Shown here: positions 43,949-62,108 of the stretch, one piece after another | Numbering within the stretch: position 1 is the stretch's first letter | Layout of the letters: each line of letters opens with the position of its first letter | Assembly (NCBI GenBank): GCA_050950765.1 | Contig: JBMNIF010000003.1 | Location: forward strand, 608,001-672,000 | DNA length: 64,000 nucleotides | Source of the DNA: Bdellovibrionota bacterium | GTDB taxonomy: Bacteria > Bdellovibrionota_C > UBA2361 > JAAYZI01 | Direction of reading: 5' to 3' | The notes under the pieces: generated by a model | The model's database searches: none | What the model saw: the letters and a program-made list of their open reading frames with translations, nothing else | What the model was told of the DNA's origin: nothing | Made by a program: the position numbers and the translations under genes

Positions 43949-44025
43949 TGGTCGGGGTGAGAAGATTTGAACTTCCGACCTCACGGTCCCGAACCGTGCG
44001 CTCTACCAGACTGAGCTACACCCCG
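43949..44025 (-). tRNA. tRNA-Pro(CGG)
   Basis: Cloverleaf CGGGGTG...CACGG-TTCGGGA-CCGTG...GTTCAAATC...CACCCCGACCA; CCA encoded. Confidence 0.95.
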
Positions 44026-56706: not shown

Positions 56707-56783
56707 TGGTCGGGTTGAGCAGATTTGAACTGCCGACCTCTCGCACCCCAAGCGAACGCGCTACCAGTCTGCGCCACAACCCG
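56707..56783 (-). tRNA. tRNA-Pro(GGG)
   Basis: CGGGTTG...TTCGC-TTGGGGT-GCGAG...GTTCAAATC...CAACCCGACCA. Confidence 0.95.
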
Positions 56784-56959: not shown

Positions 56960-57035
56960 GGGCCTATAGCTCAGCTGGGAGAGCGCTTGACTGGCAGTCA
57001 AGAGGTCAGCGGTTCGATCCCGCTTAGGTCCACCA
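56960..57035 (+). tRNA. tRNA-Ala(GGC)
   Basis: GGGCCTA...CTTGA-CTGGCAG-TCAAG...GTTCGATCC...TAGGTCCACCA; G3:U70 Ala identity pair. Confidence 0.95.
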
Positions 57036-59144: not shown

Positions 59145-59170
59145 AAAAAAACGCGGACTATGCCGCGTTT
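59145..59170 (-). terminator. Intrinsic terminator after the RRM-S18 gene
   Basis: Minus strand AAACGCGG-CATAGT-CCGCGTTT followed by a T run. Confidence 0.7.
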
Positions 59171-59211
59171 CTCCTACTTTCAAAATTAAAGAGCTTTATA
59201 GCTGCTCGCTA

Positions 59212-59760
59212 CTACGATCTAAAAGGCATCAGACCTACATTCTGCGCACGTTTAATCGCCTTAGCGATCTTCCTCTGATTATAAGCTGTTAATCCTGTTA
59301 AACGACGCGATAGAATCCTGCCTCTTTCACTAACGAAACGTGAAAGCACTGCTACATCTCTGTAATCTATGGTTTTGCTCTGATCCATTAAAAACGGATC
59401 CACCTTGCGATGACGTTTAAAAAGCTGCATCCTCTGAATAGGCGGCAGTGATTCTCTCTGACGACGCTCACCACCACTACCCGAAGAGGCTTTATTATCT
59501 TCCCAACTACTCGGCTTACCACGATCGAAGCAGACCTTCATCGGGCGACCGTTAATGACCTTACCATCTAACTCATCGATAGCCTTCTGAGCAGCTTCCT
59601 CGTTTGTCATCTCAACAAAAGCAAACCCCTTGGAGCGCTGGCTCTCTCTATCAGTCGCAATAACAACATTTACACAAGAACCAACCTTATCAAACATCTC
59701 TTTAAGAGTGTCATTGGTGACATCAAAATCTATATTACTAACAAATAATTTACTCTTCAT
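59212..59760 (-). CDS. rpsR: Fusion of an N-terminal RRM RNA-binding domain and 30S ribosomal protein bS18
   Basis: RNP2 LFVSNI, RNP1 KGFAFVEM; C-terminal [50 protein letters not shown]. Confidence 0.9.
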
Positions 59761-60128
59761 CGTGTTACTTAATAATAAACAAAAAATAGCGACAAAACGC
59801 CTACATAGAGCGTAATCATATATAAGAGTATTAAAATAAAGTCAAGACAGGGCAGCCATCAAAAGCGATGCTAAGAGGTTGATTTCTATTAAAACCCCCC
59901 TACTTTTTCAAAACACGATTTTGCAACATAGAACACGGCGAATAAAAAAAGTAATTTAAAGAGAAAAGTTTGTGTTTTTCAACACTTAATCACCAATTCG
60001 TGCAGATTCTATCTTGACCTTTCTTAGTTTAAACAGCTAAAAGCTGTCTTGTGCCGAAATTGTAGAGATTTCTTGCACCTATCGATTAACTTCCCGTCTT
60101 TACGTTTTTCAATAGAGAGAAGAAAAGT

Positions 60129-60455
60129 ATGAGTAATTCTTCAGCAGTTAATAGGTTTTCATCTGATCGTGAAGAAGATATTGATGCATCATCGCCCGTT
60201 AAACCAGAACGCAACCTCCTTGCCGCTGTATTAGCAAGAGCAATTTGCGATGCTTTCGGGACGGCGCATTGTGAGCGTCACGTCGTTCGCGGTGCCAGAC
60301 AGTGGTTGTTCGGCAAGCTTACCCCAAAAGAGCCCTTTAGTTTCGCTTGGGTCGCCTTGCATTTAGATTTAGATCCGATCTCATTGCAACAGAATTTACA
60401 CGGCTACGAAGCAAATCCTGAAGAGATTCAAGATCGCTTATCCCTCTTACGATAA
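60129..60455 (+). CDS. Small helical hypothetical protein
   Basis: PERNLLAAVLARAICD...ARQWLF...PFSFAWVALHLDLDP; purine-rich RBS; downstream hairpin. Confidence 0.7.
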   Translation: MSNSSAVNRFSSDREEDIDASSPVKPERNLLAAVLARAICDAFGTAHCERHVVRGARQWLFGKLTPKEPFSFAWVALHLDLDPISLQQNLHGYEANPEEIQDRLSLLR

Positions 60456-61442: not shown

Positions 61443-62108
61443 CTACTGATCTTTCTGCCAGATCCAAGAAATCGCTAAAGCATTGGCGTACTCGTTCCAT
61501 AACCAGCCGCTATGCGCTTTAATCCATTCCAACTTTACCTTAGGGTGTTGTTTCATCAACGTATAAGCCTCTTTAACCAGATCAAGGTTCTCTATTGCAC
61601 CTGTCTTCCTCTTCCAACCAAGTTTTTCCCACCCTTGCGCCCACTGCGTTAATGTATTCACACACAGATTACTATCTGAATATATCGTTTCTTCACTATC
61701 CTCCGGCAACAACTTAAAAGCCTCTATTAACGCCGTCAACTCCATCCTGTTATTCGTTGTTTCTAAATCGTTACCACTTTTTTCAGCAACGATCTCACCC
61801 CCCTGCACCCAAACTACCCCCCAGCCACCTCGCCCTGGATTCGGACGTGCACTTCCATCTGTAAAAATCCCACTACCAGGCCCAGCAGGAGCGATCTTTT
61901 GCAAAACCTCCTCAGGTTTCAGATCAATAGAAGATGTTATTGAAGTCGATGGATATTTTTTCTGAGTAGTAACGCCACCTGTTTTTACACCCTTTTTAGG
62001 TGAATGCTCTCTACAATATTTGGGTGTCCAATTAGGATACTTTGCTAAAACTTCATCAGGAATATTAAATGTTTTAGAACATACTGAACAAACAAAGTGT
62101 GCCATCAA
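61443..62108 (-). CDS. rnhA: Ribonuclease HI with N-terminal zinc-ribbon extension
   Basis: FTDGSARPNPGRGGWG, TTNNRMEL, YSDS, W..LGWK, N.DL, WIKAHSG..WNE; N-terminal CSVC...YCREH. Confidence 0.9.
   Translation of the reverse strand: MMAHFVCSVCSKTFNIPDEVLAKYPNWTPKYCREHSPKKGVKTGGVTTQKKYPSTSITSSIDLKPEEVLQKIAPAGPGSGIFTDGSARPNPGRGGWGVVWVQGGEIVAEKSGNDLETTNNRMELTALIEAFKLLPEDSEETIYSDSNLCVNTLTQWAQGWEKLGWKRKTGAIENLDLVKEAYTLMKQHPKVKLEWIKAHSGWLWNEYANALAISWIWQKDQ

Follow-up and report, generated by a model that had tools for sequence, protein, structure and literature searches.

The ribosomal protein bS18 sits together with bS6 on the platform of the 30S subunit, and its basic N-terminus reportedly faces the Shine-Dalgarno (SD) helix. 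The RNA-recognition motif (RRM) is a type of RNA-binding domain common in eukaryotes, and the aromatic residues of its RNP1 and RNP2 motifs generally stack on RNA bases. To our knowledge, bacterial core ribosomal proteins rarely gain whole foreign domains. The protein bS18 forms part of the mRNA exit channel, along with uS2, bS21 and the 16S rRNA's 3' end (PMC10123108), and contacts the 16S 3' tail in Flavobacterium (PMC7797042). The present analysis concerns a gene in a stretch of 64,000 nt from a Bdellovibrionota bacterium (contig JBMNIF010000003.1, positions 608,001 to 672,000; hereafter the window), which encodes a full-length bS18 whose N-terminus bears a canonical RRM on a disordered tether of about 25 residues. 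It is the organism's only bS18 gene, and the RRM-bS18 design is fixed across a whole class-level lineage.

The first-pass annotation of the window had described one uninterrupted open reading frame of 182 residues that carries a complete RRM, a linker and a full bS18 in a single chain. The list of open reading frames and a translation of the window both confirm this frame, which begins with ATG and lies on the minus strand (Table 1), and each domain matches its family models well over the cut-off. The RRM_1 model of Pfam (PF00076) matches with an E value of 1.4e-22 (79.8 bits against a cut-off of 20.7), and the domain was recovered at the same place by a genome-wide search; RNP2 reads LFVSNI (residues 5–10) and RNP1 reads KGFAFVEM (residues 44–51). 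Similarly, the Pfam model Ribosomal_S18 (PF01084) covers residues 129–178 (E 9.5e-24; 83.7 bits against 21), and TIGR00165, the S18 equivalog of NCBIfam, covers residues 115–180 (73.9 bits against 38.75). The bS18 part consists of an N-terminal extension (residues ~106–128, with a conserved stretch of 19 residues) and a core (residues 129–182). Comparison with solved structures gives the same division: residues 109–180 align to residues 4–75 of the 81-residue bS18 chain 5myj_AR, with many other ribosome entries matching too, and residues 4–77 match many solved RRMs, for instance those of the poly(A)-binding protein, nucleolin and chloroplast cS22. The translation has no cysteine in residues 106–182 and reads KVDPF at 119–123, which agrees with the earlier claim that the Zn-binding cysteines are missing; we take this part to be of the 'C-minus' type, as reportedly defined by Makarova et al. 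2001.

A structural model of the fusion, built with AlphaFold2 on 39 homologues, has a mean predicted local distance difference test score (pLDDT) of 83.5 and a predicted template-modelling score (pTM) of 0.43. The RRM is modelled as beta-alpha-beta-beta-alpha-beta at a pLDDT of about 89 (strands at residues 4–8, 29–36, 43–51 and 75–78; helices at 16–26 and 54–64) and the bS18 part at 90–96, while residues 83–98 fall below 50. The low pTM and the low pLDDT of the linker indicate two independent domains on a flexible tether. The RRM also matches the NCBIfam model NF058537 ('RNA-binding regulator') at 85.5 bits, under the curated cut-off of 100. RNA evidence was taken from three runs, as contigs; a contig of 176 nt from a metatranscriptome library is 100% identical to 59520–59695, inside the RRM part, and it stops short of the linker and of bS18, and shows neither transcription, a transcript end nor the join.

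The genome that contains the window (G000; 2.64 Mb in 5 contigs, 94% complete) gave a single match to the S18 family model, and this match is the fusion gene. A first sample of relatives held the fusion in 38 of 40 genomes, at 55–69% identity, and a search at the level of the phylum gave 124 genomes, including G000, all of one class. An S18 match was present in 116 of these, exactly one in each, and none had two. In 113 of the 116 S18-bearing genomes the RRM and S18 lie in one open frame of at least 170 residues: 108 were recognised by a single alignment over both domains, and five (G031, G058, G065, G066 and G072) by two alignments in one frame, because their linker is longer. The recurrence of the fusion in relatives, on which the first-pass annotation had let its reading depend, is thus extensive, and the join is not a chance event. 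The eight genomes without an S18 match (G001, G040, G071, G077, G078, G094, G114 and G115) are 55–90% complete, and a second S18 model found nothing over its cut-off in the five of them that were retested.

The three remaining S18-bearing genomes differ from each other. In G046 the locus is cut by a contig end. In G087, a metagenome-assembled genome (MAG) of 800 contigs, the RRM half and the bS18 half do not share a frame, the break falling where the RRM ends (L108, G087:C754:4300-5900), which is either a frameshift or a sequencing error. In G049, an open frame of 110 residues keeps the RRM's last part (..VAEER) together with the linker and bS18 (L106, G049:C117:2500-5200, ~1415–1747), and among the relatives its bS18 alone appears to be without the RRM. 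The cause is either a natural RRM deletion or a misassembly; a DNA alignment of the G049 and G051 loci, made to map the deletion, found the sequences too diverged. Beyond these genomes, a search of 5.8 billion proteins returned 391 matches, and all 120 that were listed carry both Pfam domains. Where named, the listed matches are called plain '30S ribosomal protein S18', and they come from MAGs labelled Bdellovibrionota, Bdellovibrionales, Oligoflexia, Deltaproteobacteria or SAR324. In a library of representatives at 50% identity, full-length fusions made up 4 of the best 150 matches and the rest were multi-RRM proteins, and since these swamp the list it tells little about fusions outside the lineage. 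The systematic sampling of genomes was confined to this class lineage, and the fusion could have arisen independently in other phyla.

Both domains are under strong purifying selection. Across 46 unique coding sequences (248 close pairs), the ratio of nonsynonymous to synonymous substitution rates (dN/dS) was 0.046 for the RRM, 0.043 for the bS18 extension and 0.035 for the bS18 core, against 0.112 for the linker. In the 46 unique relatives the linker spans 14–45 residues (median 22), without ever breaking the frame. Within the RRM, N9, G45, F46 and F48 do not vary among 39 aligned sequences, and F6 is kept in at least 90% of them; the aromatics of RNP1 and RNP2 are among these positions. A tree of 49 RRM domains was built from 19 fused RRMs, 15 free RRMs of this class (including that of G000) and 15 free RRMs of other phyla; it rests on only 80 columns, its free outgroup rows are those pulled in by a pattern search, and the loci L076 and L153 were left out at the length and pattern filter. 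All 19 fused RRMs fall to one side of a single branch (support 86/80, and present in 90% of 200 bootstrap trees), which is consistent with one fusion event. G000 also encodes a second RRM gene, the product of which is a free RRM protein of 126 residues with an RGG tail (L003 1342-1722; G000:C3 ~118064–118348, minus strand); it is 33% identical to the fused RRM.

The first-pass annotation had further described a lone gene with its own terminator, outside the usual rpsF operon. The gene does stand alone: its upstream neighbour lies on the opposite strand, so that the two are divergent, and a PHP-domain protein is encoded downstream. The terminator is supported by folding, which gives a terminator-like stem-loop within an 81-nt fold of -21 kcal/mol, but the z score is only -1.18 and a rule-based terminator scan did not flag it. 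The placement outside the operon is borne out. In G000, rpsF (C3:14434–14700) and rplI (C3:14903–15043) are adjacent with an 85-bp gap and neither rpsR nor ssb between them, and the fusion gene is 650 kb away, so the typical order rpsF-(ssb)-rpsR-rplI is not seen. The surrounding locus (L016, G000:C3:12934-16200) reads as rplY (bL25)-pth-rpsF-rplI, with rplY and pth judged by eye from their translations.

Upstream of the fusion gene is a sigma-70-like promoter, the position of which implies a 5' untranslated region of about 50 nt without an SD core. When the locus is aligned to its two nearest relatives (L123 and L124), the TTGAC of the -35 box is invariant, and similar TTGACA boxes lie upstream of the fusion in L007, L008, L040 and L051. 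A consensus scan for promoters and terminators gave no more than shuffled sequence gives, and missed both the predicted promoter and the hairpin. Inspected by eye, the sequences upstream of the gene in 21 relatives seem unrelated; what the locus shares there with its two closest relatives is limited to the promoter and a short TTGTCGCTAT-like word. No ribosomal protein leader was found by Rfam at gathering thresholds in the window or at the rpsF locus; the only Rfam matches in the window are three tRNA genes at 43952–44025 (-), 56710–56783 (-) and 56960–57032 (+). Elsewhere in the window, 61443–62108 (-) encodes an RNase H domain (residues 81–212) after an N-terminal extension of about 80 residues with CxxC...C..H-like spacing.

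Table 1. Features of the RRM-bS18 locus, in window coordinates
Feature	Position	Strand	Basis or remark
RRM-bS18 coding sequence, whole	59212..59760	-	182 codons, with the stop codon at 59212-59214
RRM domain, residues 5-74	59539..59748	-	Pfam RRM_1, AlphaFold2 fold, conserved residues
Gly/Ser/charged linker, residues ~81-105	59446..59520	-	predicted disordered, variable length
Complete bS18, residues ~106-182	59215..59445	-	Pfam, TIGR00165, solved bS18 chains
Protein of 108 residues, of no known family	60129..60455	+	divergent, conserved neighbour of the fusion
Terminator-like stem-loop, 3' arm into U tract	59146-59173	-	39 nt past the stop, by folding
Sigma-70-like promoter	59817..59845	-	-35 TTGACT at 59845-59840; -10 TATATA/TATATG within 59824-59817

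The divergent neighbour encodes a protein of 108 residues. This protein and its two paralogues have no Pfam, NCBIfam or PHROG match (a lone Imm5_like match has a chance-level E value of 0.097), and a search of the ESM Atlas with it returned unnamed clusters only. Orthologues are 62–84% identical, which is above the conservation of the fusion, and were present in 53 of the 59 loci examined. Both genes occur in 114 genomes of the class, and are at most 3 kb apart in 94 (median 1.1 kb), farther apart on the same contig in 4, and on different contigs in 16, where several are at contig ends. Their order varies: they are divergent in the arrangement of the window, and in G049, G051, G058 and G064 the 108-residue gene is directly upstream of the fusion or its RRM-less form, on the same strand. 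An alignment of 22 sequences has 41 invariant columns, including C40, C48 and H51; the two paralogues in G000 (C2:415271-415606 and C2:443689-444024) are weaker matches without those cysteines. The structural model is helical and of low confidence (mean pLDDT 53.8), and the prediction of a complex with the fusion (score 0.00, mark 0.32) speaks neither for nor against binding. The linkage is a lead rather than evidence for an interaction. The 2.3-Mb genome G040 (a single contig, 82% complete) has no S18 by two family models and no close orthologue of the 108-residue gene, and G071, G078, G094, G114 and G115 likewise lack both. Assembly or binning may often miss the region that carries the gene pair.

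The translation apparatus around the fusion appears otherwise complete. G000 contains one open frame of 576 residues with six S1-domain matches, which is read as bS1, as well as bS6 and bS21, and both copies of its 16S rRNA gene end in the canonical ...GGATCACCTCCTTT, which holds the anti-SD. In a survey of 1707 crudely called genes (long open frames, with the first ATG taken as the start), an SD core (GGAG, GAGG or AGGA) was found at -18..-4 in 36%, against 11% and 8% at two control positions. Since bS1, bS21, the anti-SD and SD use are all retained, the fusion is not tied to losing any of them. The idea that the fusion takes the place of bS1 therefore fails, and the bS1 frame is present alongside a single rpsR. 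When the stretch at -45..-18 of the 628 SD-bearing genes was searched for enriched words, nothing but promoter-like TATA words came up. The 16S 3' end, the only part looked at, showed no lineage-specific rRNA deletion for which the RRM could compensate.

With a sole rpsR in the genome, and no second S18 in any of the 124 genomes of the class, the RRM would be present on every ribosome, and each ribosome probably carries an extra RNA-binding arm near the mRNA exit. The bS18 part is expected to assemble with bS6 on the platform in the usual way. Its N-terminus would then point toward the cleft in which the mRNA exit and the SD/anti-SD helix are found, and the RRM, given a reach set by the ~25 disordered residues and the N-terminal tail of bS18, would sweep a few nanometres around that site. 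With its RNP1 and RNP2 aromatics intact, the RRM may bind short single-stranded RNA, and the likeliest target would be mRNA 5' leaders as they approach or leave the exit channel. Such capture could raise the local concentration of mRNA in a 'standby' manner, and would act alongside bS1 and SD/anti-SD pairing, not instead of them. We favour, tentatively and at somewhat less than even odds, the view that the RRM is a constitutive tethered binder of single-stranded RNA in the platform and mRNA-exit region, with mRNA leaders as its likeliest target. The first-pass annotation had proposed such a module tethered at the mRNA exit, and of the readings considered this one fits best, as something we infer rather than observe. 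A more ambitious version is possible though doubtful, in which a built-in second mRNA-capture arm on every ribosome grips leaders or toggles the anti-SD tail, maybe with the closely linked, lineage-specific 108-residue protein, as a new platform-associated initiation module.

Several points weigh against the favoured reading. The orientation of the bS18 N-terminus toward the SD helix is one reported in structural papers (Kaminishi 2007; Yusupova 2006). The production of the protein, its location on the 30S subunit and its binding to mRNA are all predicted. The RNA target of the RRM is likewise a prediction, and the word search gave only the TATA words mentioned above. Additionally, a conserved in-frame ATG before the bS18 core, which some annotations use as a start, may leave room for a second product without the RRM. 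Finally, if the RRM-less form in G049 is real, the RRM is dispensable.

Some alternatives concern what the gene produces. Public 'S18' gene calls of 72–75 residues are 71–100% identical to the C-terminal part (in a search limited to short proteins), which suggests that some annotation pipelines start the gene at the internal Met111; one of these, P0392 (window 59215–59430, minus strand), has 72 residues, starts at Met111 and is 100% identical to the C-terminal part, and relatives have comparable calls of 73–75 residues. Such calls fit an account in which an internal start at Met111 yields an ordinary ribosomal bS18 of 72 residues and the long RRM form is minor or conditional, as does the in-frame ATG that 60 of the 65 unique relatives have at precisely 20 codons ahead of the core, and G049 seems to live on a product from the equivalent Met. 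However, 37 of the 65 show an SD core at -18..-4 of their RRM start, and none of the 60 internal ATGs is preceded by one in that interval, and the conservation of Met111 is explained by the strongly conserved peptide motif in which it is embedded. One relative (L109, of G058) has no in-frame ATG, GTG or TTG at the internal site and another (L111) has TTG only. Moreover, in 113 genomes no stop codon closes the RRM itself, so translation begun there has to continue into bS18. An RRM-less main product is therefore quite improbable, and the short calls are read as annotation artefacts. The suggestion of the first-pass annotation that the fusion might be a specialised-ribosome paralogue beside an ordinary bS18 is practically discounted by the single S18 match in G000 and by the lack of any genome of the class with two. 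Likewise, an artefact, whether an assembly or frameshift join of two genes or a decaying gene, would account for the two frames in G087, but it is scarcely credible given the in-frame join in 113 of the 116 genomes, linkers that vary in length yet always stay in frame, and dN/dS values as low as those of the two domains.

Other alternatives accept the fusion and differ in what its RRM binds. The RRM could act on rRNA, either by binding the single-stranded, pyrimidine-rich 16S 3' tail with the anti-SD and tuning SD-dependent initiation, or by aiding the assembly of the platform and central domain in cis while S6:S18 binds. The protein bS18 lies beside the 16S 3' tail, which in Bacteroidia is held by bS21, bS18 and bS6 (PMC7797042, PMC13000457); on its tether, the RRM would stay close enough to reach that tail. 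Among RRM proteins solved on a ribosome, the closest is cS22 (RRM match E ~5e-16), which touches rRNA and not mRNA (PMC5737520). However, SD use in G000 is clearly above both controls, which means that the anti-SD is not sequestered for good, G000 also encodes bS21, and a compensable lineage-specific rRNA deletion was not found at the 16S 3' end, the only part examined; we regard action on rRNA as somewhat unlikely. The RRM could also be mainly regulatory or extraribosomal, with free RRM-bS18 binding the short, U-rich leader of its own gene, which has no SD core, or else other mRNAs, in a feedback that replaces the S6:S18 control given up when rpsR moved out of the rpsF operon. The apparently monocistronic gene with its own conserved promoter and SD-less leader is consistent with this, as are the departure of rpsR from rpsF-rplI, the lack of a known ribosomal protein leader at either locus, and the annotation of free bacterial RRM proteins as regulators (NF058537). 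On the other side, the leaders are not conserved between families, an SD core stands at the start in over half of the relatives, no conserved leader structure was found, and a regulator needs no fusion to every copy of an essential ribosomal protein. A mainly regulatory role is thus unlikely, and constitutive binding of single-stranded RNA near the mRNA exit is retained as the preferred reading.

An RRM fixed on a lineage's only bS18 would be a natural experiment, in which an arm for handling mRNA or rRNA is placed where initiation is decided. The RRM and linker, grafted onto the bS18 of a model organism, would give a construct for testing how binders of RNA at the exit channel affect the choice of start site. 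The public annotation is inconsistent, with 182 residues in some calls and 72–75 in others under the name 'S18', so marker sets for proteomes and phylogenomics may hold truncated bS18. The fusion should be surprising to ribosome specialists; its function is wholly inferred and the organisms are uncultured. What this analysis adds is the class-wide count of sole copies, the rpsF-rplI context, the checks of SD use, anti-SD, bS1 and bS21, the dN/dS values, the comparison of the two possible starts, the apparently RRM-less G049 and the linked 108-residue gene.

A full-text literature search found no paper describing an RRM-bS18 fusion, which agrees with the first-pass annotation, which knew of no characterised example. 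In comparison with the canonical bS18 (PF01084, TIGR00165), residues 106–182 are a complete bS18 over both cut-offs and the sole copy in the genome; in contrast, the fusion adds an RRM of 80 residues and a linker of about 25 at the N-terminus, its gene lies outside rpsF-(ssb)-rpsR-rplI, and its bS18 part has no cysteine. The free bacterial RRM proteins of the cyanobacterial Rbp type resemble it in having one canonical RRM whose RNP1 and RNP2 are intact, and those of other phyla are 40–50% identical to the fused RRM; however, the fused RRM is joined to a ribosomal protein in place of a Gly/Arg-rich tail, and the fused RRMs lie on a separate side of the tree branch.

Chloroplast cS22 (PSRP2) comes closest as a precedent for an RRM in a small subunit of bacterial type: its RRMs are stable components of a 70S-type small subunit, and its chains 5x8p_v (E ~5e-16) and 5mmj_v (E 1.5e-15) match the fusion. 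However, cS22 is a separate protein with two RRMs at the foot of the subunit that compensates for rRNA deletions (PMC5737520), whereas here one RRM is covalently tethered to the platform protein bS18, and the similarity is confined to the RRM. The fusion would resemble bS1 as a flexible binder of single-stranded RNA at the mRNA exit beside bS18, as PMC10123108 describes for bS1, but bS1 is built of OB/S1 domains and the fusion carries an RRM; since bS1 is present and intact, the RRM would add to it and not replace it. Similarly, the sequestration of the anti-SD by bS21, bS18 and bS6 in Bacteroidia (PMC7797042) has the same platform proteins handle the single-stranded 16S 3' tail. There, residues of proteins of ordinary length are involved and SD use is abolished, whereas here a whole extra domain is present and SD use persists.

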